DNA of 64,000 nt. Source: Bacteroidota bacterium. Its GTDB lineage: Bacteria > Bacteroidota > Bacteroidia > UBA8524. The position numbers and the translations under genes were made by a program. The stretch lies in contig WGMZ01000024.1 in the NCBI GenBank assembly GCA_016124735.1, forward strand, positions 1 through 64,000, given 5' to 3'. Shown here piece by piece: positions 7,137 to 58,226 of this stretch (position 1 is its first letter; each line of letters opens with the position of its first letter). The notes beneath the pieces were generated by a model. The model did not search any database, was not told where the DNA came from, and was given only the letters and a program-made list of their open reading frames with translations.

Positions 7137-7232
7137 TTCGAAGTTCGAAGTTCGATGTTCGACTTTAGATTTTCGACTTTAGATTTTCGACTTTAGATTT
7201 TCGACTCCTGTTTCCTGACTCCAGACTCTAGA
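7137..7232. repeat. tandem repeats (GTTCGAA x3-4, then a 14-nt unit CTTTAGATTTTCGA x3)
   Basis: Direct reading of the convergent intergenic region between the GNAT gene and the FAD oxidase gene. Confidence 0.75.
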
Positions 7233-7237
7233 CTTTC

Positions 7238-8707
7238 CTACCGGTAGTGCTCATAAAACAAATTATCGAAGCGTTCTTCCGGGTCGTATTTTCTTTTCAG
7301 GGCAAAGAAGGCATCGGCTTTTGGATAGGCCATTCGCATTTTATTCGGTGAGACATGCAAGCGGTATGGCAGGTAAAAGGTGCCGTCGAGTTGAATGGCG
7401 ATATCGGTAAGTGCATTGGTAAGTTCGCGCATGGCTTCTTCATCTTCGGGAGTCTTCAATTGATTGAAGAGATAGACAAAGCCAAACACCGGTTCACGGG
7501 CGTAATTGAGGTAGGAATCGATATCCGTTTGCACAGCACGAATGGTAATATTAAGCAGATCGATTCTGGATGCTTTCAGGATAGGTTTGATGGCCCCCAA
7601 ATAGGCATTGAAATTTCGAACCGGAATAAAGTATTCGTGCAGGATGTCGGTGGAGTTGCTGTCTTTATTTTCAATCATGCTCACGGGGTCATTGAGCAAT
7701 TCATTTCTGGAAAACACGGTGTTTAAGTTGAGCTTGTTCATGCCTCGTTCCAAATCCCAGCGCAATCGCTTGCCGTATTCGCTGTTCACGCTACTGCGAA
7801 ATACCAAACGTGAAGATTCCAATTGTTGATCCTCTTTGGGTGTCATGGGCGGAATGGCTTCTGATGTTCTTTCAAAATAGTTCAGGATGGCTTCATCCAA
7901 AAATCCTTTACCGGAGATACGTAACCTCCCAAATACCAGGTCAACATTGGGGTTCTCCCGAATCATCTTTTTGTAATAATCCAGATAGTTTTTGGCACTC
8001 ACCGCCACGTATTTATACCGAAGCGCCTGGTTGCGCACTACGTGCAATTCCACGTCGAGTATGATTCCAAAAAGTCCGTATCCACCTAATACCAAATCAA
8101 AGAGTTCTTCATTTTCATCGCGACTGCAGTTCAGTATTTTGCCGTCGGCATTCATGAGGGTAAATGCTTTCACGCTGGATGCCAGGGGTGGCACATCTTT
8201 CTGCCAACCATGTCCGTTAACACTCAAAGACCCCCCCACAGAAAAGGAACTAAATGCCTGCATGATGGCAACAGAGCGGCCGTATTGATCCAGGAAATAC
8301 AAGGCGTCTTCCCAGAGTGCTCCGGAACCAATATGCAGAATATTGCGCAGAGTGTCCAGGTACATGTGCTTGTAGGGCAGCATGTTGACGACTATTCCAC
8401 CCGGGAATAGCGTATGACCGCCCATGCTGTGTTTGGCGCCAGCAAGTGAAACTTTTAGGTCGTTTTGCCTGGCATACTGCAGCAATTCCCGGAGCTGTTT
8501 TATCAAGGCCGCCGAATCTGTTTCAACCTTAATCAGGGTATCAATGGCTGTTTGGTTCAACTTGCTGGCATCGTCTGAATAGCCTTTCGGAACGCGGGCA
8601 GGCAATCCCGTTTCTTTCGATTTTGTTTTAAGCAGATGATAAGCAGGTACGGAAAACAACAATGCAATGAAGACAAGCACGGAAAGCCAGAGATATTTCC
8701 TTTTCAT
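7238..8707 (-). CDS. FAD-binding (PCMH-type) oxidoreductase, FAD-linked oxidase family
   Basis: 489 aa. N-terminal TM anchor. FAD-binding region with VSLAGAKHSMGGH (His for covalent FAD). Resembles D-arabinono-1,4-lactone oxidase-like enzymes. Confidence 0.7.
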   Translation of the reverse strand: MKRKYLWLSVLVFIALLFSVPAYHLLKTKSKETGLPARVPKGYSDDASKLNQTAIDTLIKVETDSAALIKQLRELLQYARQNDLKVSLAGAKHSMGGHTLFPGGIVVNMLPYKHMYLDTLRNILHIGSGALWEDALYFLDQYGRSVAIMQAFSSFSVGGSLSVNGHGWQKDVPPLASSVKAFTLMNADGKILNCSRDENEELFDLVLGGYGLFGIILDVELHVVRNQALRYKYVAVSAKNYLDYYKKMIRENPNVDLVFGRLRISGKGFLDEAILNYFERTSEAIPPMTPKEDQQLESSRLVFRSSVNSEYGKRLRWDLERGMNKLNLNTVFSRNELLNDPVSMIENKDSNSTDILHEYFIPVRNFNAYLGAIKPILKASRIDLLNITIRAVQTDIDSYLNYAREPVFGFVYLFNQLKTPEDEEAMRELTNALTDIAIQLDGTFYLPYRLHVSPNKMRMAYPKADAFFALKRKYDPEERFDNLFYEHYR

Positions 8708-18239: not shown

Positions 18240-18572
18240 TTAGTCCGTCAAATAAATAAGTCGGATTCCCATTTGAAGAGCAAAGTAAGCAGCCAAACAG
18301 ATCATTGGAGAATAAGAAAGGATAATATGCCAATGAAGAATCCTTGCTTCTTTCCTTAGTAATCCAGAAAGAATAAACACAAAACGAAAGGACAAAAAAA
18401 GAAAGGAAATCATTATTAAGATGATCCCCGATACACCATATCCAAAATGTTCATCAAATAAGTCACTCGCATTGTAGTGAACGGAAAGATATAATAGATA
18501 GACGCCAACTACCTGCAAGAAGAATAAGTAAAAACTTATGAATGGGTGCAGTACAATTTCTTTGATATACAA
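18240..18572 (-). CDS. hypothetical 3-TM membrane protein
   Basis: 110 aa hydrophobic ORF. Confidence 0.35.
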   Translation of the reverse strand: MYIKEIVLHPFISFYLFFLQVVGVYLLYLSVHYNASDLFDEHFGYGVSGIILIMISFLFLSFRFVFILSGLLRKEARILHWHIILSYSPMICLAAYFALQMGIRLIYLTD

Positions 18573-18682
18573 TAAACTTTTTTAGCAAAAGCGAACATAA
18601 AAAGACCAATTTAGCAAGAAATCATGGAAATGCAGTTTAGATTATTGACCTCAAACCATGACCTGAAGGTTTATCAGAAAGC

Positions 18683-18946
18683 CTAACGGGGTTTATCAGG
18701 AGGATTTACGGCTTTCATGATTCGGCTTGAGAAGATAATCAGGAAAAAGATGCCGTTCCAGATGAACAGGAAATTGGTGAAATGGGTCATGTATGCAGTT
18801 CGGCAGGGCGGACAAGGAAATCCATCGAGACAGGGTTCGCAATGGATGGTGTAAGCGTCCCAGAAGTATTTGGCCAGGAGGATGAGATTTACGAATAGCC
18901 AGGTCCAGAAGTAGAACCTACGATTCAACAGACGTGCCGATTGCAT
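18683..18946 (-). CDS. hypothetical membrane protein with CxxC-rich segment
   Basis: 87 aa. HCEPCLDGFPCPPC flanked by two TM helices. Confidence 0.35.
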   Translation of the reverse strand: MQSARLLNRRFYFWTWLFVNLILLAKYFWDAYTIHCEPCLDGFPCPPCRTAYMTHFTNFLFIWNGIFFLIIFSSRIMKAVNPPDKPR

Positions 18947-19133
18947 GGCTCAAATTACATAATTCATCGTTCATTCCGACTGAATAGGGATAAGAATAAT
19001 ACCTGAAATTTTTCTTCTCGCATTTTTTGAGGCTCGGTGGCTTATTGCGAACGAATCGTATCAATAAAAAAGCCGGCTCCCCCTCGGAACCGGCCCTATG
19101 CAGGAAACTCGCTAAAACTTCAACTGCAGGATA

Positions 19134-20492
19134 CTAATGCTGAATACTCAGCTTCTTATTAATGACGGCGTCACCCAGTGCAATACGCACCAGGTAAGTA
19201 CCGGCATACAGTGTCTTTGTATCGATATAGGCGATAGTGCTTCCTTGCCATAACCAGGATTCATGCACCATTTTTCCGTTGATATCGAAAACCTCAATAT
19301 GGTAATTGCCTTGTTGCACCATGGGAACCTGAATGGCGGTTAAATCGCCGGCCGGGTTCGGATAGAGAACCACCTCATTTTCTAATAACGCATTGACAAC
19401 GGAAGTATTGCTTGGCTTATACTCGCTTACTTGTTCATTGATGCTATTGACCTTGCCTCCGCTTACAACTCCGTAATAGGTTGGTCCGACAGCATAAGGA
19501 TAAGCAGAATTCCAGTTTTCATCTACGGTACAGAAATAAGCATAGGTGCCGTTCGGGTATTCCGGGGTCACGCAAAAGCGGCCATTGTGAATATCCAAAT
19601 AGTCTTCTTGTCCGGAATGGACAATGAATTCATAATCTTCACGGAAGGTTCCGATCGGATAGGTGCTGTTTACATCCGGACCATCTGTTACATCTGTACC
19701 ATCGTAATACGTGGTGCGTTGGGTTATGTTTCGGAGCTGATAGCCCGATTTGATCCGAACAACTCCTCCGGAACCATCCGCATTTTTATAGCCATAGGCT
19801 CCGTAAATGGGGTAACCGTCGTAGGCGTAACCAATCAAAGGGGAATGCTTGGTTTCGTCGATAATATAAAGTCCGTCGGCCGCATAAAGGTCGCATACAT
19901 TCGACACGACAACTTTATCCAAGTTGAAAGCCGACGGATTTTGGTGATGGTGGTAATTGCCCTGGGCCGGGTGCCCTTTGGAGCAATCAAAGCCAATTCT
20001 TTCTGCAATCACCGCATCTCTGTTCCATACGCCATCGCCGGAGCCCATCAGCGGACCACCCGCTAATTTCTGGTTGGCATTGTCCCAGGATGCGCCGTCG
20101 CGGTAATCAAATAAAGCGACACCGTTAATAAAGTTCCCAATATTTCCGGGCTTGGTTTTGGTCGGTGTGCCCGTATTTTTTTCCGGATTCAAAGGGAAGC
20201 GGAAAATGGCATTTTGGTTGGTGGTTACCGATGGGTTTTTGTCCAGAAAAGGTCCTGTTGGATAGGCAGGCACTCCGGTAGCCGAAATGTAGACCCAGTT
20301 GGTGGAATATTGAACTTTTTGCACATTGGCATCGTCGTTCATGGTTTGTGGAGTGGAATTCCCCTTGGTATAATAACGTCCTTTAATTCCGCTGGTATTA
20401 ATAATCCAATTGGTAATGGCCGGGTTGGATTGAGCGAGAATTTCGCTGCTTCCCAGAACTAAAATAAAGGTAAGATACAGAAGCTTTTTCAT
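19134..20492 (-). CDS. secreted T9SS cargo protein with YHYH-like domain
   Basis: 452 aa. Signal peptide. C-terminal T9SS sorting domain (VVLYPNPAGD...YLVRI). Central region with GNYHHHQNP and Gly/Tyr-rich motifs reminiscent of the YHYH family. Confidence 0.6.
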   Translation of the reverse strand: MKKLLYLTFILVLGSSEILAQSNPAITNWIINTSGIKGRYYTKGNSTPQTMNDDANVQKVQYSTNWVYISATGVPAYPTGPFLDKNPSVTTNQNAIFRFPLNPEKNTGTPTKTKPGNIGNFINGVALFDYRDGASWDNANQKLAGGPLMGSGDGVWNRDAVIAERIGFDCSKGHPAQGNYHHHQNPSAFNLDKVVVSNVCDLYAADGLYIIDETKHSPLIGYAYDGYPIYGAYGYKNADGSGGVVRIKSGYQLRNITQRTTYYDGTDVTDGPDVNSTYPIGTFREDYEFIVHSGQEDYLDIHNGRFCVTPEYPNGTYAYFCTVDENWNSAYPYAVGPTYYGVVSGGKVNSINEQVSEYKPSNTSVVNALLENEVVLYPNPAGDLTAIQVPMVQQGNYHIEVFDINGKMVHESWLWQGSTIAYIDTKTLYAGTYLVRIALGDAVINKKLSIQH

Positions 20493-20664: not shown

Positions 20665-21657
20665 TTAATTTCTCGGTGCCGCATGCTCCGGCTTGAATAC
20701 AAATGCTTCGTCGCTCAAGGTGAGCAGGAAAGCTACCAGCTCAGTTCGTTCATTGGAACTGAGATGGATTCCGTTTTTTAAAACAGGAGCAAGTGTGGTG
20801 GAGAAAGCAATTCCGAATTGATAATGATCCAAAACCTGGTAAAGGGAAGTGAATCGTCCGTCGTGCATATAGGGAAAAGTATATTTCAGATTACGCAGAC
20901 TTGGGATTTTAAATAAAAAGGAATCTTTTGGATTTAGGGTGAGGGAATAGCGACCTAAATCGTTCAGTGCCGTATCTGCCGGCAATCCGTTGTTGGCAAA
21001 TGCATAGGTGCTGAAGAGCGGTTCTGTATGGCAGGAGTTACACCGGGTTTTGAAAATTTCATAGCCCTTCCTCTCCATCTCATTGAATTCAGCTTTTCCG
21101 GCCATTACCTGGTCGTATTTGCTATTGGCAGAGATGAGGGTCAGTTGAAATTCCGAAAGTGCCTCCAGCAAATGGGCTTCGTTGATGGCGTCCACTCTAA
21201 ACGCTTTAGCAAATAATTCCCGGTAATGGTCAGATCTTTTTAATTTTCGGATGATGAAGTCCATGTCTCCATCCATCTCGATCGGATTTAAAATTGGCTG
21301 CGTATTTTGTTCCTGAAGGGAATTGGCAATGCCATCCCACATAAAATGCGACTGCCAGGCCAGATTAAAAAGGGCTGGTGCGTTGCGTGTTCCGATTTGG
21401 TTGTCGATGCCATGACTTAAGGCATGGTCAATATGGGTGAAAGAGCTGTATGGGGAATGGCAACTTTCGCAGGAAACACTGCTGTCGCGGGAAAGAATGG
21501 GGTCGTAAAAGAGGAAGCGTCCCAGTGCAATCTTTTGTGAATCCAGGGAAAGGGAAACCCTGGGTTCGGGCCAATAGTCGGGAAACAAAGAGTCCCTTCG
21601 TAGATTGAATGCACAAAGCAACACCAGCAGGAAGAAAGAAACCGCGGCTTTTTTCAT
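20665..21657 (-). CDS. di-heme cytochrome c peroxidase (CCP/MauG/MbnH family)
   Basis: 330 aa. Signal peptide. Two CxxCH heme motifs (CESCH, CNSCH). Conserved MWDG and Tyr/Met distal residues. Confidence 0.85.
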   Translation of the reverse strand: MKKAAVSFFLLVLLCAFNLRRDSLFPDYWPEPRVSLSLDSQKIALGRFLFYDPILSRDSSVSCESCHSPYSSFTHIDHALSHGIDNQIGTRNAPALFNLAWQSHFMWDGIANSLQEQNTQPILNPIEMDGDMDFIIRKLKRSDHYRELFAKAFRVDAINEAHLLEALSEFQLTLISANSKYDQVMAGKAEFNEMERKGYEIFKTRCNSCHTEPLFSTYAFANNGLPADTALNDLGRYSLTLNPKDSFLFKIPSLRNLKYTFPYMHDGRFTSLYQVLDHYQFGIAFSTTLAPVLKNGIHLSSNERTELVAFLLTLSDEAFVFKPEHAAPRN

Positions 21658-22328
21658 TCAGAATAAAGTTCGGCATTTTCAGCGAGCAATTGCATTAATC
21701 GGGCAGACTCCCTTCCGGGCGACATAATAAAGGGGTCATCCGGAAATTGCTGAAACAAGGCGTCGAGATGGAGGCGAAGCTCGTAGCGATGTTTGTTTTT
21801 GTCCATCGCAAAATGCAGGGATTGAACAGATGAATAGGGGCCCTGGTATCCTCCCAAATGCAATTCGAATTTTTTCTGTTTGTACTGTCCCTCCATCTTC
21901 AAATGGACATAGCCGGTATGCCAGGTCCAGTACATGCCTTTGATCGGATCCAGATCGCCTTTTAAAAAAAACATTTGGTTGGAAATGGTCTGACTATCCA
22001 CACCGAGTATTAATTCAAGCGAATCCGGGTAGTCCAGGTGCATGTTTTCGTCCTCGTATTCGAGTATATTTTTCTCCGATAAATCAAGAAGTTGGGGTGC
22101 CGCAATTGGAGCCAATTCCTTGTCGAATTTTTTAAAGAGCAATACGTTACTGATATAGAGTTTAAAGGTCGTCAGATGCAGGCTTTGGTTGGCTTGAACG
22201 CTTTTCAGGCTGAGGGGTTCTCCGCCTAAATAGGGGATTACCTTCAGTTCAGTTTTATAAATCGTGGGTTGAGCTTGCCAGGAAAAGCAAAGCATACTTA
22301 TCAAAAGCCATTTCCAAGCTTTGCTCAT
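21654..22328 (-). CDS. secreted protein partnered with the di-heme peroxidase (MbnP-like candidate)
   Basis: About 224 aa from the internal Met (MSKAWKWLLISMLCFSWQAQP signal). 4-nt ATGA overlaps on both sides. Trp/His-rich. Assignment to MbnP is by context and size only. Confidence 0.4.
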   Translation of the reverse strand: MSKAWKWLLISMLCFSWQAQPTIYKTELKVIPYLGGEPLSLKSVQANQSLHLTTFKLYISNVLLFKKFDKELAPIAAPQLLDLSEKNILEYEDENMHLDYPDSLELILGVDSQTISNQMFFLKGDLDPIKGMYWTWHTGYVHLKMEGQYKQKKFELHLGGYQGPYSSVQSLHFAMDKNKHRYELRLHLDALFQQFPDDPFIMSPGRESARLMQLLAENAELYSE

Positions 22329-22789
22329 GGTCTTCTTCTCCTTCCCGGATTTGGTGGCCCGGGAGAAAATAATCGGGACAATTCGTGTGTCAGTTTGTTG
22401 AAGGCTTGCATCTGTTCCGGTTTGCACAGTTTTTTGATCTCCTGAAAATGACGGTAATTTACCCGTTCAATTTCGGAGAAGTCATATCCAATTCGATGGG
22501 TCAATGAATCGAATGTTTGAGGGGCAATTTCGTCGCTTAAGTGAGCAAACAATTCATTCTTCAGACGACCGATGTCTTCTTGCAGCCTTCGCACCTCTTT
22601 GCGGTGGATTTCAATCAGATCGTCGTAGGCGGCAATCTGTTCTGCATCGAAATGCAGTTTTTCGATGATTAATTCCTTTGGTCCCTCATGGAGCATGCGC
22701 GAAGCCGGGTGAAACACCATGTAAAGGAGCAGCCCATTCCCAATCAGGAGCAAAGAGATAATACTGATGACAAATGTTTTCCTTTTCAT
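22325..22789 (-). CDS. hypothetical periplasmic protein (Spy/CpxP-like helical stress protein candidate)
   Basis: 154 aa. N-terminal TM/signal. Helical region with LTH-type repeats and a Pro/Arg tail. Encoded between the anti-sigma and MbnP-like genes. Confidence 0.4.
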   Translation of the reverse strand: MKRKTFVISIISLLLIGNGLLLYMVFHPASRMLHEGPKELIIEKLHFDAEQIAAYDDLIEIHRKEVRRLQEDIGRLKNELFAHLSDEIAPQTFDSLTHRIGYDFSEIERVNYRHFQEIKKLCKPEQMQAFNKLTHELSRLFSPGPPNPGRRRRP

Positions 22790-23073
22790 TGGTACAGGGA
22801 ATTGCTTGAATTCAGATGCATGGTGGAAATTATTTGCTCTGCATCTGAGTGTTGCTGGCTGCGTAAAGCGATAATGTTGACGGCAAGCAAAATCAATACT
22901 CCCGCAATTGCCGACCAGGCAATGGCCGGACGCACATATTCCATCTTCTCTTCCAACCTCGCTTTAATCCGGGTAAGGAGGAAAGGAGGGACCTCGCTCT
23001 TTGGAAGCTGACCCAGTGCATTCAACTGTATTTCCAGGGGACTCATTTCTGTTATGTTAGACGCCTTCTTCAT
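22786..23073 (-). CDS. putative anti-sigma factor (single-pass membrane protein)
   Basis: 95 aa. One TM helix (AIAWSAIAGVLILLAVNIIAL). Immediately downstream of the ECF sigma factor with a 4-nt overlap. Confidence 0.5.
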   Translation of the reverse strand: MKKASNITEMSPLEIQLNALGQLPKSEVPPFLLTRIKARLEEKMEYVRPAIAWSAIAGVLILLAVNIIALRSQQHSDAEQIISTMHLNSSNSLYQ

Positions 23074-23591
23074 CTTAATCCTTCGTTTTGAGTGAGTTTA
23101 TTTGCAAGATTTGCTTTTGCCCTTTGCAGCAGTGACTCCACCGCTTTTGGACTGGTGTTCAAAATCCTGGCAATTTCTTTTTGTGATTTCCCTTCCATCT
23201 TGGAAAGGAGTAAAGCGCTTTTTTGTTTTTCCGGTAGCGCTTGAATGTGGCGATAGATACGTGCCAATTCTTCTTTACCTTCCAGCAATAATCCGGGATG
23301 GTTTATAGATTGCTCCGGCAAAATCTCTCCATCTAATTCAAAGAGAGAAGAAAAAATTCCCCAGCGCCTTTTGCGTTTTTTCGCACGGTGGTAATCCAAA
23401 CAGGTATTGAGCGCAATCTTGTAAATCCAGGTACCTGTCTGCGCCTCTTCTCTGAATTTTTCCATTGAGCGGTACACTTTTACAAATACATCCTGGGTGA
23501 TTTCCTCTGCATCTTCCCGGTTTCCTGTTTGGTTCAGCGCCAGGTTATACACCATGGAAGCATGTTCCTTATAGAGTTGCTCGAGGTTCAC
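23070..23591 (-). CDS. ECF-subfamily RNA polymerase sigma-70 factor
   Basis: 173 aa. Region 2 (DAEEITQDVFVKVYRSMEKF) and region 4 HTH (SQKEIARILNTSPKAVESLLQRA). Confidence 0.85.
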   Translation of the reverse strand: MNLEQLYKEHASMVYNLALNQTGNREDAEEITQDVFVKVYRSMEKFREEAQTGTWIYKIALNTCLDYHRAKKRKRRWGIFSSLFELDGEILPEQSINHPGLLLEGKEELARIYRHIQALPEKQKSALLLSKMEGKSQKEIARILNTSPKAVESLLQRAKANLANKLTQNEGLR

Positions 23592-23619
23592 AGGACGAAT
23601 ATAGGAATAGGCCGCTATT

Positions 23620-26600
23620 TCATTTAACCACTACCATTTTCCTCGCTTCCCTTCCATAAATCTCCGGAACATACATATTCTCCATCTGCGCCGGCATCAA
23701 AGTCAGCGTTCCATCAAATTGAGGCAATAACTGAAAGTCGAAAGTATAGCTGCCCCGGGGCAATGCTTCAAAATAGATGACGATATGATCGGCGAAATAC
23801 TCGCGTCCGGTTTCTCGTCCATAACCTGCTGGTTTACTCACAATTTGAAAGCCGGAAGGGATAGGCACATTCATCACCAGGTATTTCTGGTATTCGCTCA
23901 CCTTTACTTTTACCCGCAGATTAGCGAGATTACCTGCCTGAACCTCCAACACCTCATTGGTATCACGAGAAAAGGATGTCCACACCTCGATACCCTGACT
24001 AATTGAGGTATTGCCTTCGCTTTCTATTTCTTCGATGGCAATGACACTGATATCGGCACCTTGATTTTCAATCTCGATTTCTGAACCTTCTATAGCAATC
24101 TCTCCGGAGCTTTGAATCAATTTACCATTTACCTTTACGGCAATTAGGGATCCGTTTTCTGCCAAAACTTCCTCCATCAGGGCATTTATAATCGCAGCGC
24201 GTTCGAAGGTATTGCGGCTCACATAGCCAAGTTTGTCGAATACAAAGAGACGCATGGCCTTCCTTTCTTTTTCATATCCTCCGGCTTTCTTCAGGATGGA
24301 ATAGGTCTGCATGGTCAGGCTCATGGTCGCAGCATTGAATCCCCAGCGACTGTTTCCATCCACATAGCCATGGCCTTTATTTGTGTATTTGATGGATTGC
24401 AATAAGGGCTTCACATCTACATCGAGGGCCAATTCTTGTTTCAATTGGATGAGATTGAGCTGTGCTTCCAGACTCAGGTTGAGTGTGTCCATTTGCGCAA
24501 TAAAGCCGGGATAATCCAAACGAAGCTTCACCTGATGGGCCTCCATCATCGTAAGAATACGGTCGCTATATTCCAATTGTTGAAGCTTGTTGATCAAAGC
24601 GCCAACGGCACTTCTGGCTGCTTTATTGGAATAGCCGTTTTGGTCGGCCAGCAGCAGGGCTTTGGCCACATACAATGTCATGGGAGTCTGACTGTTGCTG
24701 CCTTGGTACCAACCCCAACCGCCATCTTTGTTCTGGGCCTTTTCGAGGCGATGAATCATCTTCTCAATTTCTTTATCCGTAGTTGGTGTTTCGCCAATGA
24801 GCTGCAAGAACTTCGTTTGCCATACCAGCGCGATGAGTTTTGAAGCCGTTTGCTCGTTGCAACCGTAATGGTAGGCATTCAGGCGGTTAATTTCTTCCAT
24901 CACCAGATCGCGGATACCGCTTTCCAAACGCAGGCTTTTCTTTCTGGCGGAACTGTCGAAATAAAGGGTGGTGATTTGACCTTTATCCAATATACGGGTC
25001 TGTACTTTCCGGTCGTAAATCAGATTGGAATGAACCGGAACCGGACGCATTTCGCCATCGATATAATTTCCGTATTGAAGCGAATAATGGAGCTTCAAAC
25101 TATCCATGCCACTTTTCACCTGCAGCCATTCCTGATCACGGAAGTACTTTTTCACAGTGAGTGAATCCGAGCTCTCGCCATTTCCCAGGTCCTTTTGAAT
25201 TTTCACGGAAGTGCTGTCGCCGGTCAGGTCGCGCACATTAGCAGAAACCTCGATGCGGTCGCCAACTGTTACAAATTCCGGTACACGCAGACTTACCGAC
25301 AAAGGTTTGTAGGAACGGGTATAAGAAGTGTTAAGTACCGTTTGGCGCTTGCGGTTAATCGCCACCAAATAGTTAACCCATTTCGTTTGATCGTCAGGAA
25401 GTGTGAAGGTAAAAGCCGTTTTCCCTTCTTTGTTGGTGATGAGATTCGGTACCCAAAAACCATTGCTACGGAAGTCTTCCCGTATTTTATTGGCATTGGG
25501 GTCATTGCTCATTTCATCCATACGGTCTTTTTCGTGGATGGCACTTTCGATGGTTCTTAGTCCTTTATCTTTACTTTTTTGTTTCACATTCACACTAAAA
25601 ACTCCACTAGCCATATTGGAAATTCTATTCACAGATCTACCAGACATCATTGAGATTGACTCTTCTACCATCATTGCGTTATCATCTTCTCTGATAACTG
25701 GATTTTTGTATAGTTTCTTTTGAACATCTCCAAAGTTGTACATATACGTATAGAGAGAGTTCTCCTGGCTATTATTTAAAACGGCGTTTAGAACCAGAGA
25801 TTTATTATTCCTAAGCTCAACCTTTTCATAGGAACTAATTTGATATCCCAAACCTTTAAATTCAACCTGGTAAATCCCCTTTTGTAAACAGCAGATGGAG
25901 TAATTCCCCTCATTATCGCTAATTGCCCCACCCACAACGATGCCATCGAGCAATACCTGAATCCGCACTCCGGCAACAGCTTTTGCATGTTCTTTACTTG
26001 TTATGGTACCCTGAAGATTGGCAAAGGGCTTGTCCAAGGGCAAATAATGCGCCTGGCGCTTGTCCCATTTTCGGTAATCAATAAGTGCGCTAACCTTGTT
26101 TAAGAACGAGGTATCGGTAACACAATCAATTTGGAGGCTTAGCAATTTTTCCGGATTGATGCGCACTTCTTTGGCAAAGAAAACCTGGCGAGTAGAACTA
26201 ATAACCTGTACCCAATAGGACCCGGGTTCCATGTCGTAATGGTCAAAGTAACCCTGATTGTTCGCGACTGACAGATAGCGGGTCTTGCCATTCTGGTGGA
26301 TGAAAACCACATAGGCATAAGGACCGGGATTTAAATCGATTTGAACTTGTCCATTAACGGAACCTTTTTTCAGTGAGGAATTGTTTTCCTTTTCGAGAAT
26401 ATAAGCGTCGTAAAGTGGCACAGTTTTCTTTCCATACCGGATCAGGGTCTGGTAGTAATTGTATTTGAGCTGGCCCCAATTATTTACCTGTAGGGGCTTA
26501 GCCAATTTATCCAGCCGGATAAATGTGCGATGCAAACTATCGATAAATAATGAGTCAATCTGAAGCATCTCATCTTCGTAGGATCCGGTTATCAAGGTGT

Positions 26601-29600
26601 ACCATCCGGCTTTTAACTGCGTTAAATTTTGAAGGTATCGATTGTTGTAAAAGGAATAGGCTGGGTTTTCGAGGTTGATCATCCAACAGAAATTGGGCAC
26701 AACCGGAAAAGAGGTGTCATATTGCAAGTTGAGCAAGGCCGTTCCGCCTCCGCCGTAATAATTCTCGAAACCTGGTACTCTGCTGGTTTGAACCGGTCTT
26801 TCTGCGACTTTGATGTTCTTATTGGCTTGCTCGATACTGTCCATCAGATGGAATTGCCAGTAAATTTCCCTGGCGCCGAGCGCGTCATTGGAATCCAAAT
26901 AGCCCAAACGATTATTGGCGCTGTTCTGAAGCGAAAGCCGGGTTTTGGGGTATTGCGACACTTTCCCACTGTCAATATGGTAGATTTGATTCGGGTCGAA
27001 ATAAAAGCTGATGCTCGTATCCCGATTAATAAATGTTGCCATTCCTTCAGTTAAAGGTCCCACTACCTGATAATTGTACCAGATACTGTTGGTATAAGCG
27101 CCAAACCCATTTTGCCCGATGCTGTAATAATTGGAGTCTTGTTGGATATACCCGGGCGTGCGCATATCGTGCAGGGAGAGGAACAGCATATATTTTTCAA
27201 TCTTTTCCAATTCGGGTTCTTCGTAATATGCTTTTACCTCCCGGTATCGGATGGAAGAAGTACTGACCATTTGTGCCGTATTGATTCCAATCAAATTGTG
27301 ATGTCCGCCTTCAAACCTCACAGAGTCGAGATCGATGGTGTATTTCTCGGTCCGGATGAAAAGATGATGCAGTCCTGGGCGTACAACAAGAACGGGTCTT
27401 TGCTGCATGTAATTGACCAAAATATACCGAAGGGTATCATCTACCCACACTTCCTGTGGCCATTCTGTATTATCGTTTTCTTGCACCGCCACCTGGAGGT
27501 AGCACTGTCCGTCTTTGCTTGGAAAAGCCTCCTGATCCATTCCTTTTGGATTGTAGTAGGCCCGGTAGTTAAGGAATCGATCTAGGTGATAGTCACGATA
27601 GGCTTTTTCACTATTCGCTTGTCCGCTATGTCCTGGAAAGCTTTCATTGGGTCCCGAAATAACATAGAGAGAAATTGGTTTCGTGTGGACTTTTGGAAAA
27701 ACAGGAATATTCGGTGGATAGATAACCGGCATTTGCATGTTGATGCTGGTCCCGGTGATATTGGCATGTTTCACCGGTTTGTCAAAAAAGTCGAATACCT
27801 GCACCTCGGCACTGATTTTTTGTCCGGGGTATGCCAGTTCAGGCAAAGTATGCACGATACGTAGTGTCTGCGTTTGGGGAAGGATGGAAGTTTGGAAGAA
27901 GTACATCGCCGATCCGTTTAAATAGCGATAAAGCACTTGCACCGGATCATCTCCTTTAAGCAGCATGGCCAGGGTGTCGGAATCTCCAAATTGAACCCGT
28001 TTGCCCCGGTAATAGATTTCCCAGTTCAGATGATAATGCTCTCCATTGACCACAAAGAGGTAGAGCGAATCTTTGGTTTTCTTACCAGAAACCGAAATCG
28101 GGAAATCATTGCCCGTCACGCGAATAATATTCCGGTTGTTTTTATCGGTCACTGTTATGGCCGAATAGCGGGAAAAATCTTCGATGACATAGGGTAGCCG
28201 AGTCGCAATAATTTGGTTCTCTGAAAAATAGCGATCGATCAGATGGATGTTCACCGAATCGGAAACCGTATCCCGGTCGTTGATGTGGTAATACAAGCGT
28301 ACCGATTTATCGTCTTCGGTATACCCATAGTCCTCTTTCCAGTTCGTTCCACTGCAATAAAGATTGAATTCCTGGTAGTCGTTGTTGGGCATGGTGATTT
28401 TTACCCGCGTCCGGATTCCATGATCGATGGAAGCGAGTAATGCGTCCGGAATTCGAAGCCAGGTTTCTTTTTCCGGTTCCAAATAGACTACCGTATCCAG
28501 ATAGTGACGAAATGCCGAATCGGGAATACTCAGGTAGGGTGTATACAATTTGCCCGGACTTTCCAGATTGAAGCGGATTTCCGCCTTTGAGCCGGCGATG
28601 GGAATTTCGTTTCGATCGACCGCCGAGAGAATCAGAAAGGCGCTGTCGCCAGGAAGAAAATACGATTTGCTTAATCTGGCAGAAAGCGTAAAGTTCCTGA
28701 AAGTGTAATGCGTCACCTTGAAGTTGATGGTTTTTTGGATCATTTTGTTATGCACTGCATAGAGTGATAAATTATAGAACTCATCCAAGTGCAGACTATC
28801 GGGCACTTTCCAGTCGAAGCCAAAAGATCCGGGACTGTATTGGGTGGCGGGTAAATCCAGATGGTATCGGTTTCGCCCCTGGTTTAAGTCGATGCTCACC
28901 CGCACTGCCTTTTTGTAGGGTCTTCCTTTTTTATCCATCAAAAAGGCTTTAACATGCAAGGAATCGTTGTGCCGAAATTCGCTTTGGTTTAGCAGGATAA
29001 AACCAGGTTCGAAAGATGGCTTTGTCCGGTTTCTTCTGCCCTTCCTTTTTTCTTTCGGTTTCTTCGGACTCCGCGCATGAGGGGCAGAGGCAAAATCATT
29101 GCTTTTCAAGATGAAGAAGCCTCCGGAGTAATGAAGAATCATGGGTTCCTTTGGCAGACGCTTCCTGGTCCACTCGACGCAATGGCAATACGGCAATGCG
29201 GCGATTTTTTTATTGGCTATTTCGAGGGTGAAATCTTTCTCAAAGCCACTGGAATCGTAAATATAAACCTGCCAAACATCGTCGGTCTTATAGGCCGATA
29301 CCATAACGTCAGAAACATGCACCGCGGTAAATGAAAGATTGTTTTTCTCGTATTTGACAACGAGATAATAGCCAAACTTGCGCTGCTTTAGAAGGTATTG
29401 GTAAGCGTTCTGATTTTTTGCGATACTATCGAATGGGGCCCGGTCAAACAAGGTGCTATGTTTGAAATCATTCTCACGGAGCGCGACCACTTCCTTTTCA
29501 GAAAGTTGATAGATATAATCAAAAGTGGGTAGGGGAGCATTGAGCTGAGCCTCTGTGCAAAGGGAAATCAGCATGCTTAGGATAAAAAGTAATTTTTTCA

Positions 29601-29601
29601 T
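23620..29601 (-). CDS. alpha-2-macroglobulin family protein (large, about 1990 aa)
   Basis: Signal peptide at the internal Met (MKKLLFILSMLISLCTEAQ). Repeated beta-sandwich (MG-like) segments. Thioester-region motif YGCNEQT (CxEQ retained, Asn in place of the usual Gly). Confidence 0.75.
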   Translation of the reverse strand: MKKLLFILSMLISLCTEAQLNAPLPTFDYIYQLSEKEVVALRENDFKHSTLFDRAPFDSIAKNQNAYQYLLKQRKFGYYLVVKYEKNNLSFTAVHVSDVMVSAYKTDDVWQVYIYDSSGFEKDFTLEIANKKIAALPYCHCVEWTRKRLPKEPMILHYSGGFFILKSNDFASAPHARSPKKPKEKRKGRRNRTKPSFEPGFILLNQSEFRHNDSLHVKAFLMDKKGRPYKKAVRVSIDLNQGRNRYHLDLPATQYSPGSFGFDWKVPDSLHLDEFYNLSLYAVHNKMIQKTINFKVTHYTFRNFTLSARLSKSYFLPGDSAFLILSAVDRNEIPIAGSKAEIRFNLESPGKLYTPYLSIPDSAFRHYLDTVVYLEPEKETWLRIPDALLASIDHGIRTRVKITMPNNDYQEFNLYCSGTNWKEDYGYTEDDKSVRLYYHINDRDTVSDSVNIHLIDRYFSENQIIATRLPYVIEDFSRYSAITVTDKNNRNIIRVTGNDFPISVSGKKTKDSLYLFVVNGEHYHLNWEIYYRGKRVQFGDSDTLAMLLKGDDPVQVLYRYLNGSAMYFFQTSILPQTQTLRIVHTLPELAYPGQKISAEVQVFDFFDKPVKHANITGTSINMQMPVIYPPNIPVFPKVHTKPISLYVISGPNESFPGHSGQANSEKAYRDYHLDRFLNYRAYYNPKGMDQEAFPSKDGQCYLQVAVQENDNTEWPQEVWVDDTLRYILVNYMQQRPVLVVRPGLHHLFIRTEKYTIDLDSVRFEGGHHNLIGINTAQMVSTSSIRYREVKAYYEEPELEKIEKYMLFLSLHDMRTPGYIQQDSNYYSIGQNGFGAYTNSIWYNYQVVGPLTEGMATFINRDTSISFYFDPNQIYHIDSGKVSQYPKTRLSLQNSANNRLGYLDSNDALGAREIYWQFHLMDSIEQANKNIKVAERPVQTSRVPGFENYYGGGGTALLNLQYDTSFPVVPNFCWMINLENPAYSFYNNRYLQNLTQLKAGWYTLITGSYEDEMLQIDSLFIDSLHRTFIRLDKLAKPLQVNNWGQLKYNYYQTLIRYGKKTVPLYDAYILEKENNSSLKKGSVNGQVQIDLNPGPYAYVVFIHQNGKTRYLSVANNQGYFDHYDMEPGSYWVQVISSTRQVFFAKEVRINPEKLLSLQIDCVTDTSFLNKVSALIDYRKWDKRQAHYLPLDKPFANLQGTITSKEHAKAVAGVRIQVLLDGIVVGGAISDNEGNYSICCLQKGIYQVEFKGLGYQISSYEKVELRNNKSLVLNAVLNNSQENSLYTYMYNFGDVQKKLYKNPVIREDDNAMMVEESISMMSGRSVNRISNMASGVFSVNVKQKSKDKGLRTIESAIHEKDRMDEMSNDPNANKIREDFRSNGFWVPNLITNKEGKTAFTFTLPDDQTKWVNYLVAINRKRQTVLNTSYTRSYKPLSVSLRVPEFVTVGDRIEVSANVRDLTGDSTSVKIQKDLGNGESSDSLTVKKYFRDQEWLQVKSGMDSLKLHYSLQYGNYIDGEMRPVPVHSNLIYDRKVQTRILDKGQITTLYFDSSARKKSLRLESGIRDLVMEEINRLNAYHYGCNEQTASKLIALVWQTKFLQLIGETPTTDKEIEKMIHRLEKAQNKDGGWGWYQGSNSQTPMTLYVAKALLLADQNGYSNKAARSAVGALINKLQQLEYSDRILTMMEAHQVKLRLDYPGFIAQMDTLNLSLEAQLNLIQLKQELALDVDVKPLLQSIKYTNKGHGYVDGNSRWGFNAATMSLTMQTYSILKKAGGYEKERKAMRLFVFDKLGYVSRNTFERAAIINALMEEVLAENGSLIAVKVNGKLIQSSGEIAIEGSEIEIENQGADISVIAIEEIESEGNTSISQGIEVWTSFSRDTNEVLEVQAGNLANLRVKVKVSEYQKYLVMNVPIPSGFQIVSKPAGYGRETGREYFADHIVIYFEALPRGSYTFDFQLLPQFDGTLTLMPAQMENMYVPEIYGREARKMVVVK

Positions 29602-29873
29602 GGTTCCAACATTTAAAGAGCAGCGTATGCCTCTAATACGTCGTTTTAAAGTTAAACGTTGGAAATTAACAAATTGATAATACAACAGTGTAGCCTGATC
29701 GAATCAATTGGCAGGATGTTTCTATTATTCGACCACGGTATGCACAAAATATGCATCAGGCTATTGCACTATTCACCGTCTTGCGGAGCTGCCGGCAGTT
29801 CTGAGAATAGGATAGCCTGCAGGCAGTTCGGCGATTTCCGGTTTATTGTCTTCCGGATGTATAAGTAGCTCTT

Positions 29874-31232
29874 TTACCGGTTTATTTGAATTCGCTGATT
29901 CTGTCCCTGGAACAAGAAAATGTAGGTGCCGGCACTCAGGGCATGCACATCAATTTCTGCTTCATCTGCTAATTTCATTCCTTTCAGAACCAGTTTGCCT
30001 TGCATGGTGTAAATCCGGTATTCTCCCTGTTTTTCGTCTTTTATTATGAGCTTTCCTTGGGTGGGGTTGGGGTAGACCTGTATAGAACTTTCGTATACTT
30101 CAAAAAGTCCATTGGACAAACCAGGGATGAAAACCACATTGCTGTAAAAGGTATCCTGATTATTAACGGCTCTTAATCTGTAGTAAAAACTACTATCTCT
30201 TGAAAGAACAGAATCTACTAATTGAACGCCATTTCCGTGGGTGATATTTTGCAAAGGGGCACTAATGCTTTTGAAGCCATTAGATGTGGACCTCTCCAGA
30301 TTTATTTGGACGTTGGATGCCCAATTGCTGCTGTTGCTTGTAAAAGTGAAGACCTTGGAATCAATTTGATCCGTATTTAGGCAAAGAGAAGGATTGATGC
30401 TGTCAAACAATATAATTGGCAGCCCACAATCAAACTGGGTAACCTGTCCATTTTCGTAGCCAAGCATGCTCAATGGAAAGTAGAATATTCCGGGGTTTGT
30501 GAAATGAAGTTGATATTGTGAGTCGTTTAGTTGTACATAGGTTCCCTTTGTCCCGAGTGGATTTGACTTACTATACCCCGACTTATAAGTGCCGGGATTA
30601 CGGGAGGGCAATTTATCAGGAGGCGAGGGCACAGGGTCATGAACATCTCCAAACACATAAAATTCGTCAGATACGATTCGTATTGAATCAAAATAATTAT
30701 TCCAGTGAGGAAAAGTAAAAGTATAGGTTGAATCGGAATGCAGGAATATTGGCGGATATTCAGAAAACCGGAAGCTTATATCGCCTGGTTTTAATTTGCT
30801 TTGATCAGGTGTGCTAATACGTAATTCAGTGCCCTGGTCATTTTCGATATTATTAAAATATCTGAGACAGCAGAGGCCAGAGAAAAAAGTATAACCAACT
30901 GTTGATGCAGGTAAGTTAACTTCATTGTAGTACACACGCATTCGAATATCGATTCCGTGAATTGCGTCTCGGTAATAGGTTTGATCGTTGCGCGTAGGAA
31001 CCTGGATTACATATTGAATTGATCCATTCGTCCCCTTGTCGTATATACCAACCGTTATAAAATCATCAAATGAATTTACAGCATCTCTGATTTGAATGAC
31101 TTTAATCCGATAACGGTGCAACCCATTTCCTTGCAATCCAAGGTACTCAACAGATCCATCGGTATAGAGAATATTAGATGAAAATGCAGGCAGAACCAGC
31201 AGATTCATCAAAATTACAATCAGCTTTTTCAT
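29874..31232 (-). CDS. secreted T9SS cargo protein, hypothetical
   Basis: 452 aa. Signal peptide. C-terminal sorting domain (VYPNPTQGKL...GTYIF). Confidence 0.6.
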   Translation of the reverse strand: MKKLIVILMNLLVLPAFSSNILYTDGSVEYLGLQGNGLHRYRIKVIQIRDAVNSFDDFITVGIYDKGTNGSIQYVIQVPTRNDQTYYRDAIHGIDIRMRVYYNEVNLPASTVGYTFFSGLCCLRYFNNIENDQGTELRISTPDQSKLKPGDISFRFSEYPPIFLHSDSTYTFTFPHWNNYFDSIRIVSDEFYVFGDVHDPVPSPPDKLPSRNPGTYKSGYSKSNPLGTKGTYVQLNDSQYQLHFTNPGIFYFPLSMLGYENGQVTQFDCGLPIILFDSINPSLCLNTDQIDSKVFTFTSNSSNWASNVQINLERSTSNGFKSISAPLQNITHGNGVQLVDSVLSRDSSFYYRLRAVNNQDTFYSNVVFIPGLSNGLFEVYESSIQVYPNPTQGKLIIKDEKQGEYRIYTMQGKLVLKGMKLADEAEIDVHALSAGTYIFLFQGQNQRIQINR

Positions 31233-31274: not shown

Positions 31275-32702
31275 CTAGTAATAATAAAAACTTAGCACTT
31301 GTTTCGATCCATTGGGGTGAATTCCTTCAATGACGATCCGTCCGCGGATGCGCTCTAAGTCGTGTATAAAGTCTTCAACTTTATTGTAGCTGGTGTTGTT
31401 GAGTTTCACAAAGATGAATCCATCCGGGATATTCATCTTACGTATCATCCCATTTTTAATGTTGGTCACACGGAAGCCATCTTCAATCCCGTAGCGGTCG
31501 CGCTCAACCTTGGAAATGCGTTCAAAATCGGCCCCTAAAATATCGCTGTGAACCAATTTATGCTTGAGCATGGCCGTGGTGCCTTCACGATTTACCAGGG
31601 TCAATTTCTTTTCGCCGCCCTTGCTCAAAGTGACGTTGATTTTGGCTCCCGGACGGTAGTAGGCGATTTGCTCATCAAAAAGTGCCTTGCTGTCGACTTC
31701 GGTTCCATTTACTTTTAAGATGACATCTCCTTCGCTGATGCCTGCATCGTGGGCCGGACCGTCTTTCCCCACATAAGCCACATAAACACCCTTGTCCTGA
31801 TTGCCAGTCCTTTTTAAAATTTCTGAAGTGATATCAACCACTTCCATCCCCGTGAAAGCGCGCTGCACTTCTCCAAACTCTTTCAGGTCTTTGATGATTT
31901 TGCTCACAATATTCACCGGAATAGCAAAACCATATCCATTGTATGCTCCGGTGCGGGAAGCAATGGCGGTGTTGATTCCAATTAAATCGCCCTTGAGATT
32001 GACCAAAGCTCCTCCCGAATTCCCGGGGTTAATGGCCGCGTCGGTTTGAATAAAACTCTCAATGGGAAACTGATTACTCACCACATTGATATTTCGACCT
32101 TTGGCACTTACAATTCCAGCGGTCACAGTGGAAGTGAGGTTAAAGGGATTTCCCACGGCCAGCACCCATTCTCCAATTTCGACCTCTTCTGAATTGCCAA
32201 ATGCAATGGCAGGGAGTCCTTCGGCATCAATCTTCAATAATGCCAGATCGGTGGAAGGATCGGTGCCAATAACCTTGGCAGGATAGACGTAACGATTATT
32301 GTTTAATATTACCTCAATGGATGTGGCTCCATCGACCACATGGTTGTTGGTGGCAATGTATCCATCTTCGCTAACGATTACACCCGATCCGGAGCTGGTT
32401 TGTTCGCCTCTTTGTCCGAAGAGATTGAACCAATCATCCCAATAAGAAGAGACCTGTGCAGGAGAAACTGTTTTGATATAAACCACACAGGGGGTGCTTT
32501 TTTTCGATGCGTCTACAAATTCTACATTCCCCAAATTGAGGCTGGATGCGCTGTAATTTGCTGAGTGGAATGCATACTGACTGCTGTCGACAGGTATTGT
32601 TTGAGATGATTCTGTCTTTTGAGACAATGAGAAAATCCAGGCTCCGCTGAAACCGCATGTCAGGGATACAATTGAGAATAGGAGGTATTTCTTCAACATC
32701 AC
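31275..32702 (-). CDS. Do/HtrA/DegP-family periplasmic serine protease with PDZ domain
   Basis: 475 aa. Catalytic triad context (TNNHVV, D..LLKI, GNSGGAL). C-terminal PDZ. Confidence 0.85.
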   Translation of the reverse strand: MMLKKYLLFSIVSLTCGFSGAWIFSLSQKTESSQTIPVDSSQYAFHSANYSASSLNLGNVEFVDASKKSTPCVVYIKTVSPAQVSSYWDDWFNLFGQRGEQTSSGSGVIVSEDGYIATNNHVVDGATSIEVILNNNRYVYPAKVIGTDPSTDLALLKIDAEGLPAIAFGNSEEVEIGEWVLAVGNPFNLTSTVTAGIVSAKGRNINVVSNQFPIESFIQTDAAINPGNSGGALVNLKGDLIGINTAIASRTGAYNGYGFAIPVNIVSKIIKDLKEFGEVQRAFTGMEVVDITSEILKRTGNQDKGVYVAYVGKDGPAHDAGISEGDVILKVNGTEVDSKALFDEQIAYYRPGAKINVTLSKGGEKKLTLVNREGTTAMLKHKLVHSDILGADFERISKVERDRYGIEDGFRVTNIKNGMIRKMNIPDGFIFVKLNNTSYNKVEDFIHDLERIRGRIVIEGIHPNGSKQVLSFYYY

Positions 32703-58190: not shown

Positions 58191-58226
58191 GCTTATTGGT
58201 ATTGATGCGTGTTAAAATTCTTTTTC

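Follow-up and report, generated by a model that had tools for sequence, protein, structure and literature searches.

What would a protein resembling the copper-binding MbnP of methanobactin operons, together with a di-haem enzyme resembling its partner MbnH, be doing in a member of the Bacteroidota, and what controls the pair? The question is raised by a gene cluster on the minus strand of contig WGMZ01000024.1 of a Bacteroidota bacterium (UBA8524; assembly GCA_016124735.1), of which positions 1 to 64,000 were analysed (hereafter the window). An initial annotation made from the sequence described five genes there, coding for a sigma factor of the extracytoplasmic function (ECF) type, an anti-sigma factor, a periplasmic helical protein, an MbnP-like protein and a di-haem peroxidase. 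On balance, and with considerable room for doubt, we favour reading the cluster as a six-gene regulon of the ECF sigma factor, probably responsive to copper, which would produce a kynurenine-dependent Cu(I) binder, the maturase of that binder and a secreted His-rich protein with a YHYH domain.

A distant MbnP and its di-haem partner

The 224-residue product of the fourth gene matches the Pfam family MbnP (PF20243) over residues 27–194 with 100.5 bits against a cut-off of 27, and the same family is present in all 94 of its homologues; some of these Bacteroidota proteins are already labelled 'MbnP family protein' by NCBI. Its AlphaFold model (predicted local distance difference test score, pLDDT, 83) was compared with the PDB using Foldseek, and the top six matches were all chains of 7L6G, the MbnP structure (probability 1.0, template modelling score 0.57–0.63), followed at a distance by a match with an E-value of 1e-2 and a score of about 0.2. 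Identity is 25–35% in the homologue alignment and reaches 41% in the closest genome locus among the matches listed. The WxW motif, M132 and H157 are invariant in 35 homologues, M202 is near-invariant, and the invariant blocks read G-M-Y-W-T-W and, downstream, H-L-G-G. The mature protein contains just two Trp, both in WxW, which does not fit its earlier description as Trp/His-rich. The conserved kynurenine-forming Trp that the initial annotation suggested looking for would be the first Trp of WxW, invariant across the 35 homologues: in PMC11951088, MbnH is described as oxidising the first Trp of WxW in MbnP to kynurenine, and the copper of MbnP as held by His, Met, water and kynurenine. Judged by family match and predicted fold, we regard the protein as a distant but real MbnP.

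The adjoining di-haem enzyme, which carries the motifs C63xxCH67 and C206xxCH210 (both present in 78 of 78 relatives), aligns over its full length with MbnH (6e1c), N-terminal extension included. Y279, the predicted axial ligand of the E haem, lies 17 residues after a PY(M/F)HDG motif, and alignment places Tyr at this position in 77 of 78 relatives. The Shewanella peroxidase 3o5c has Met there, as, presumably, does the peroxidase 1iqc of Nitrosomonas europaea. Ligation of the E haem by His-Tyr as opposed to His-Met is the stated distinction between MauG-type enzymes and canonical peroxidases (PMC11892367), and the replacement of Met by Tyr therefore indicates that the protein is not an ordinary peroxidase. 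The initial annotation had assigned it broadly to the MauG/cytochrome c peroxidase family; within that family the Tyr ligand and the MbnH alignment favour the MauG/MbnH side, and we classify the enzyme as MauG/MbnH-type by its predicted Tyr ligand, with a predicted Trp-oxidising activity. The resemblance to the MbnP/MbnH pair proposed earlier is borne out by PF20243, by a fold match confined to 7L6G, by WxW and by the Tyr at the E haem: the first protein does have MbnP similarity and the second is not an ordinary cytochrome c peroxidase.

A third, secreted partner

A profile of the MbnP-like family recovered at least 578 loci among species-representative genomes, nearly all from Bacteroidota and a few from Ignavibacteriota. 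Neighbourhoods were counted in 80 of these loci (L001–L080), the denominators being the loci testable for each feature. MbnH adjoins MbnP in 76 of 77 loci, and a gene for a YHYH-domain protein occurs near the pair in 56 of 64 (46 directly after it and 10 nearby; 8 without). A reverse search from YHYH-anchored loci of metagenomes gave MbnP and MbnH upstream in 43 of 49 testable loci, an association of 88% in either direction, and look-ups from single YHYH homologues recovered two full clusters. The MbnP–MbnH–YHYH triad is frequent, not obligatory.

The YHYH gene of the window starts 172 nt after the MbnH-like gene. Its product combines a signal peptide, the YHYH domain (PF14240, 193.1 bits; cut-off 25) and a C-terminal sorting domain of the type IX secretion system (T9SS; Por_Secre_tail, 45 bits; cut-off 27), and it also matches PHROG virion and baseplate families (1e-38 to 1e-42). 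Identity among the YHYH proteins is 55–78%, far above that of MbnP, with many invariant aromatic and His residues, H174, H181–183, H216 and H302 among the latter. Comparison of the single sequence and of a family profile with the PDB matched the T9SS tail only.

Some variation was seen around this gene. Longer YHYH proteins of about 720–830 residues, which by their length carry extra domains, are encoded in two Ignavibacteriota loci (L061 4379–6538 and L062 7792–10278) and in a locus labelled Hyphomicrobiales (L073 9716–11884). The L082 cluster, which came from the YHYH homologue P0136 and is labelled Candidatus Kapaibacterium by one source, encodes between MbnH and YHYH a 194-residue protein without credible family match (7193–7777), as do L083 and L084. 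Contigs L001, L063 and L073, which carry a Bacteroidota-type cluster, are labelled as metagenome-assembled genomes of Burkholderiales, Bifidobacterium or Hyphomicrobiales; since nearly all other occurrences of the cluster are in Bacteroidota, mis-binning is probable.

A promoter-like motif common to both parts of the cluster

A bipartite motif, first visible in the spacers before YHYH genes, occurs exactly twice in the 64-kb window with up to one mismatch (0.29 sites expected), both times within the cluster and on the coding strand. One site, P1, stands ahead of the anti-sigma gene and overlaps the stop codon of sigma, with its −35 half inside the last codons of sigma; the other, P2, precedes the YHYH gene (Table 1). 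Across the 80 loci and the window (2.07 Mb, both strands counted) the same tolerance gave 55 sites. Of these, 54 occupy one of two places, the 3′ end of sigma before the anti-sigma gene (the P1 position) or the stretch after MbnH and before YHYH (the P2 position); 6.2 Mb of shuffled sequence gave no site. The P1 position is occupied in 31 related sources, the P2 position in 37 and both in 28, and independent metagenome loci contributed the P1 position in 14 loci and 18 further sites at the P2 position. The two heptamers are nearly invariant and the N15 spacer is not conserved, as expected of −35 and −10 elements. ECF −10 regions typically contain CGTC.

Upstream of the sigma genes, exact bipartite k-mer enumeration found nothing above shuffled controls, and a position-weight scan placed 26 of 29 sigma upstream regions at background, that of the window (23592–23740) included; copies in this position were seen in L033 only, plus L021 and L053 with a variant motif. 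With the motif after sigma and not before it, the predicted promoter P1 would drive the anti-sigma, sensor, MbnP and MbnH genes and not sigma itself, and the location of P2 before YHYH would place that gene in the same predicted regulon. This placement suggests that the anti-sigma factor provides negative feedback while sigma does not positively autoregulate, an uncommon arrangement among ECF systems. In five related loci, P2 is followed by inserted genes that separate MbnH from YHYH and code for a multicopper oxidase secreted by the T9SS and for an AhpC/TSA redoxin; here the motif stands in front of the oxidase.

Sigma factor, anti-sigma-like protein and candidate sensor

The first gene product matches TIGR02937 with 104.9 bits (cut-off 42.9) and consists of sigma-70 regions 2 and 4 only. 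Its GTG start is supported by an N-terminal xNLxELY motif kept in relatives, and the NCBI record likewise gives 173 residues. The ECF assignment made earlier agrees with the Pfam and TIGR02937 matches and with the conservation, at position +1, of a partner with a single transmembrane helix. That partner has no Pfam match; what its relatives have in common is PPFLLTRI, a single transmembrane helix and an N.LY motif at the end of a short C-terminal tail, and with this shape of a small single-pass anti-sigma factor, conserved in relatives, we refer to it as anti-sigma-like. The ATGA start of its gene is upstream of the −10 element of P1, so that transcripts from P1 must start translation at M10 (codon 23044–23046). 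Translation from M10 yields 86 residues, in agreement with the NCBI and homologue gene calls, and M10 is probably the functional start.

The third product has an N-terminal membrane anchor followed by a helical domain with two LTXXQ-like motifs. Among its aligned relatives, 18 of 28 match PF13801 (Metal_resist; best E-value 5.7e-10) and 6 of 28 match PF07813 (LTXXQ), and the best PDB match of the family profile is the LTXXQ-type protein 5ihf (E-value 0.026). L45, E108, C122 and Q126 are invariant in the family; H62, H114 and Q51 are kept in at least 90%. We consider the protein a candidate metal sensor and, through its relatives, a probable member of the Metal_resist/LTXXQ family; its description as a periplasmic helical protein captured the helical domain and overlooked the probable Metal_resist membership. 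The three genes stand upstream of MbnP in 28 of 66 loci, and the order sigma, +1 anti-sigma, +2 heavy-metal-resistance protein is a recognised ECF neighbourhood of metal stress (PMC7826278).

Extent of the unit and gene boundaries

From sigma to the di-haem enzyme, five consecutive co-directional open reading frames (ORFs) occupy the minus strand, and the 4-nt overlaps reported for them could be read in the DNA as ATGA at all four junctions. Their description as a five-gene operon needs extension: the unit comprises six genes, the YHYH gene included, and the sole strong terminator-like hairpin stands after YHYH. When genes were called independently on another assembly of this DNA, the five genes came out the same except for the sigma start (161 residues). 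The NCBI record of the contig, a Bacteroidota metagenome-assembled genome (locus tags GC180_07620–07630), in which the MbnP-like protein is named 'hypothetical' and the di-haem enzyme 'cytochrome-c peroxidase', has 86 residues for the anti-sigma-like protein (start M10) and 213 for the MbnP-like protein. With these starts two of the four overlaps vanish, so the overlaps hinge on start-codon choice. The 86-residue start is probably right; the 213-residue start truncates the signal peptide and is probably too short. Among relatives, the sigma/anti-sigma junction is mostly a gap of 0–40 nt (23 of 28), and the 4-nt overlap is found at 31 of 62 helical/MbnP junctions and at 64 of 127 MbnP/MbnH junctions.

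The 172-nt spacer after the MbnH-like gene folds with a z-score of −2.39 and contains an imperfect hairpin. A consensus terminator scan did not flag this hairpin, a weakly supported element that may act as a partial terminator ahead of P2. A scan of the region against Rfam gave no credible match.

Proposed function and alternatives

We posit that the periplasmic Metal_resist-type sensor would detect a metal signal, most likely copper, and relieve the anti-sigma factor, freeing sigma. Sigma would then fire P1, giving anti-sigma, sensor, MbnP and MbnH with built-in negative feedback, and P2, giving YHYH. In the periplasm, the di-haem enzyme would oxidise W134 of the MbnP-like protein to kynurenine, which would create a Cu(I) site with M132 (or M202) and H157 most likely as other ligands. 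The MbnP-like protein, with Cu(I) bound, would then work with the His-rich YHYH protein while the latter crosses the periplasm to the T9SS, the likeliest link being copper supply. The link to copper is drawn from the MbnP fold, the WxW motif and the multicopper oxidase and redoxin of five loci; in proteobacterial copper-uptake operons, MbnPH-like and AhpC_TSA genes co-occur (PMC9426467). The cluster had initially been seen as an envelope-stress or metal-responsive oxidative module, and of these options the YHYH gene, the two ECF-type motifs and the probable Metal_resist identity speak for metal response rather than for envelope stress or peroxide. Excess copper as the trigger would fit the sensor type and the multicopper oxidase, whereas methanotroph precedents suggest copper shortage (PMC3621798). 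A more specific version, which we entertain only tentatively and consider rather improbable as it stands, is that YHYH is a secreted enzyme that needs copper or an oxidatively modified residue, with MbnP/MbnH as its periplasmic loading or maturation machinery. If true, MbnP would gain a defined client, and a cofactor would be at hand for a domain that diatoms and jumbo-phage baseplates have in common with Bacteroidota proteins numbering in the thousands.

Several points weigh against the copper regulon as we read it. That kynurenine forms and copper is bound is predicted, as is the inducing signal, and the choice of M132 and H157 as putative Cu(I) ligands is a guess from conservation. Identity to the structurally characterised MbnP is 12–15%. 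The NCBIfam model TIGR04052 (MbnP_like_WxW) gives 29.8 bits, below its cut-off of 140, and aligns only over the WxW block 130–163, so that the search of the 224-residue protein against MbnP models, suggested at the outset, succeeded with Pfam and failed with NCBIfam; neither the sequence nor a 35-sequence profile found anything meaningful among solved structures, 7L6G being left unreached. The di-haem enzyme scores 194.1 bits with the MbnH equivalog TIGR04039 (cut-off 362.85) and 196.6 bits with the MauG model TIGR03791 (cut-off 443.85), and missing both cut-offs would put it in a separate MauG-type subfamily. The helical protein of the window itself has no PF13801 or PF07813 match at E ≤ 0.01 or E ≤ 1. 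The AlphaFold model of YHYH has a pLDDT of 52.6, so its fold is not predicted, and the one functional statement we found on the domain calls it enigmatic and a predicted Zn-dependent hydrolase, not a copper protein (PMC7824862). One locus (L086 5274–7365) has MbnP followed by YHYH without MbnH nearby, and another (L085 6001–7356) has YHYH by itself. Finally, 38 of 66 loci lack an adjacent sigma trio and P2 was found in only 11 of the 49 YHYH-anchored loci, which means that regulation is not uniform.

Copper detoxification is a possible, though considerably less probable, alternative: the sensor would detect excess copper, the kynurenine-bearing MbnP would buffer periplasmic Cu(I), and YHYH would be a separate output such as an envelope or polymer hydrolase. 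Sensors of the Metal_resist/CnrX type normally answer the presence of metal (PMC7826278), a CueO-like multicopper oxidase and a redoxin accompany the cluster in the five loci mentioned above, and the published prediction for YHYH is indeed a Zn hydrolase (PMC7824862). However, the tight association of YHYH with MbnP/MbnH in both search directions, and its position directly after MbnP even where MbnH is missing, are more easily explained by a direct functional link; the multicopper oxidase is itself secreted by the T9SS and would not act in the periplasm, and the analogous kynurenine copper proteins of methanotrophs are repressed by copper (PMC3621798). That YHYH, alone or with MbnP, is the main substrate of the di-haem enzyme, which would install a protein-derived cofactor as MauG does in methylamine dehydrogenase, we judge unlikely. 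In its favour, MauG-type enzymes are oxidants that modify proteins (PMC11892367), the three genes tend to occur side by side, and the strong conservation of YHYH (55–78% identity), including its many invariant aromatic and His residues, would suit a substrate; yet the sole tested precedent is MbnH acting on MbnP, the gene immediately upstream of MbnH is always MbnP, often with the 4-nt overlap, and the locus that keeps MbnP and YHYH has no MbnH nearby.

Far less credit can be given to two simpler accounts. An ECF-regulated peroxide defence, with an ordinary cytochrome c peroxidase and accessory or unrelated neighbours, could draw on the NCBI name of the enzyme and on a PDB sequence search in which canonical peroxidases come out marginally best (140 against 134 bits), but an obligate partner with an MbnP fold, the full-length alignment with MbnH and above all the predicted Tyr in place of Met at the E haem in 77 of 78 relatives, the defining MauG-type feature, run counter to it; we reject this account on the haem-ligand position and regard it as largely refuted. 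It is equally improbable that YHYH is a mere neighbour and the shared motif a coincidence or a coding constraint. The 172-nt gap and possible hairpin before YHYH, and the location of P1's −35 half inside the final sigma codons, would be compatible with this. Against it, co-occurrence reaches 88% both ways although MbnP proteins are only about 30% identical, the same 7 + 7 motif with the same spacing recurs in non-coding DNA before YHYH with an unconserved spacer, and outside the cluster the motif is found nowhere else in the window. Co-occurrence and motif together refute coincidence statistically.

Relation to known systems

The closest relatives of the central pair are MbnP and MbnH of the methanobactin operon of Methylosinus trichosporium OB3b (7L6G, 6E1C), where a periplasmic WxW protein is likewise encoded immediately upstream of a MauG-type di-haem enzyme; with the same Pfam family, a matching predicted fold and the Tyr ligand, the same Trp-to-kynurenine chemistry would be expected here. 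The two differ in the low identity and the sub-threshold NCBIfam scores of both proteins given above. Unlike methanobactin operons, the cluster has a sigma/anti-sigma/Metal_resist trio in place of FecIR-type MbnI/MbnR, includes a T9SS-secreted YHYH protein as conserved third partner and belongs to the phylum Bacteroidota. The reported lack of TonB receptor and methanobactin precursor genes agrees with our finding of none, MbnB/MbnC and the transporter MbnT included, among ORFs of at least 120 residues within about 12 kb on each side; none of the ORFs of at least 550 residues in the window codes for a TonB-dependent receptor, and a small MbnA-like peptide was not specifically searched for.

The regulatory genes recall CnrYXH of Cupriavidus metallidurans and the groups ECF281, ECF290 and ECF291, which likewise combine an ECF sigma factor, a single-pass anti-sigma factor and a membrane-anchored helical protein of the metal-sensor type. 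CnrY and CnrX, about 90 and 150 residues long, are similar in size to the anti-sigma-like and helical proteins here. In CnrYXH, sigma-dependent promoters precede regulatory and effector genes, as predicted here; in contrast, sigma comes first in the present gene order, there is no efflux pump, and the motif follows sigma, with no sigma autoregulation predicted in 26 of 29 loci. By sequence, the helical family profile did not reach CnrX in the PDB.

Methanotrophs also have MopE/CorA with MCA2590/CorB, a secreted or surface-located kynurenine copper protein encoded beside a MauG-like di-haem enzyme (PMC3621798); that copper protein has a different fold, and in the present cluster the secreted YHYH and the kynurenine-type MbnP-like protein are two separate proteins. 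The YHYH proteins of jumbo-phage tails and baseplates have PF14240 and the conserved His cluster in common with the window protein. In the phage proteins the domain is joined to tail components and a Zn hydrolase is predicted (PMC7824862), whereas YHYH here is a stand-alone T9SS cargo under predicted ECF control beside predicted copper-handling genes.

In the searchable literature we found no description of a dedicated sigma/anti-sigma/Metal_resist trio for MbnP/MbnH, of the promoter motif with its placement after sigma, or of a coupling of YHYH to MbnP/MbnH, the neighbourhood analyses of Kenney 2019 and Manesis 2021 lying outside this search. These two studies reportedly noted MbnP/MbnH pairs outside methanobactin operons and near copper-homeostasis genes. 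Such pairs are documented far outside methanobactin operons (PMC3621798), and also in the vicinity of genes for copper homeostasis (PMC9426467). What MbnP/MbnH do biologically is unsettled even in methanotrophs, and the Bacteroidota version, very widespread, with a sensor and switch of its own and a third partner that is constant, would offer a simpler genetic setting for kynurenine copper sites. It also provides a first hint, from gene context, of what the YHYH domain does, a defined promoter motif usable for regulon mapping, and an uncommon ECF arrangement, with the sigma-type promoter placed after sigma, where it would drive anti-sigma but not sigma.

Feature coordinates and neighbouring genes

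Table 1 Coordinates of the cluster genes, regulatory elements and key codons, and of an insert in related loci
Feature	Position	Strand	Basis or detail
ECF sigma factor, 173 aa, GTG start	23070–23591	minus	Sigma70_r2 (PF04542), Sigma70_r4_2 (PF08281)
P1, ECF-type promoter-like motif CGAAGGA-N15-CGTCTAA	23057–23085	minus	perfect match; −35 at 23079–23085, −10 at 23057–23063
Single-pass anti-sigma-like protein	22786–23073	minus	longest ORF 95 aa
Membrane-anchored periplasmic helical protein	22325–22789	minus	Metal_resist/LTXXQ (CpxP/Spy/ZraP/CnrX-like) superfamily, via relatives
MbnP-family protein, 224 aa, signal peptide	21654–22328	minus	PF20243
WxW codons W134-T135-W136	21921–21929	minus	W134 is the predicted kynurenine precursor
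MauG/MbnH-type di-haem enzyme, 330 aa	20665–21657	minus	CCP_MauG (PF03150), 180 bits
Y279 codon, predicted axial Tyr of the E haem	20821–20823	minus	alignment with the 'IDIY' Tyr of MbnH 6e1c
Imperfect hairpin with GCUUGC end, then U7, between MbnH-like gene and P2	20547–20607	minus	fold of the spacer
P2, CGAGGGA-N15-CGTCTAA	20509–20537	minus	one mismatch; ends 16 nt before the YHYH ATG
YHYH-domain protein, 452 aa, signal peptide and T9SS C-terminal sorting domain	19134–20492	minus	PF14240, Por_Secre_tail
Terminator-like hairpin closing the unit	19069–19097	minus	12-bp stem, then T-rich tail; only strong one found
Multicopper oxidase and AhpC/TSA redoxin insert in related loci	L003 9642–13491; L014 3404–6920; three more loci		oxidase with Cu-oxidase_3/_2 and Por_Secre_tail

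The flanking ORFs of at least 120 residues are unrelated to the cluster and include a giant gene, mevalonate-pathway genes and others. The giant gene (23620–29685, minus strand; longest ORF 2021 residues, 1993 in the gene call) codes for a protein whose CarboxypepD_reg, A2M and bMG10 domains mark it as a bacterial protein of the alpha-2-macroglobulin-like kind. Between the end of the giant gene and the sigma start there are 28 nt, which would place the promoter of sigma itself inside the 3′ end of the giant gene, and the latter is not conserved beside the cluster in other loci. Beyond it on the same strand lie a T9SS cargo protein of 452 residues with Por_Secre_tail as its only match and no recognisable catalytic domain (29874–31232) and an HtrA-like trypsin/PDZ protease (31275–32702). 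Just past the YHYH terminator, two small hydrophobic ORFs of 110 and 87 residues have no family matches (18240–18946, minus strand). About 33 kb away, a haem-copper oxidase is encoded by COX1 and by COX2 fused to a cytochrome c domain (56283–59918, minus strand), a copper-requiring enzyme in the window that is unlinked to the cluster. At 8739–13584 the window has an RtcB RNA ligase close to a WYL/WCX-domain protein and an SPFH/Band-7 protein. WYL regulators are often linked to RNA-repair genes.

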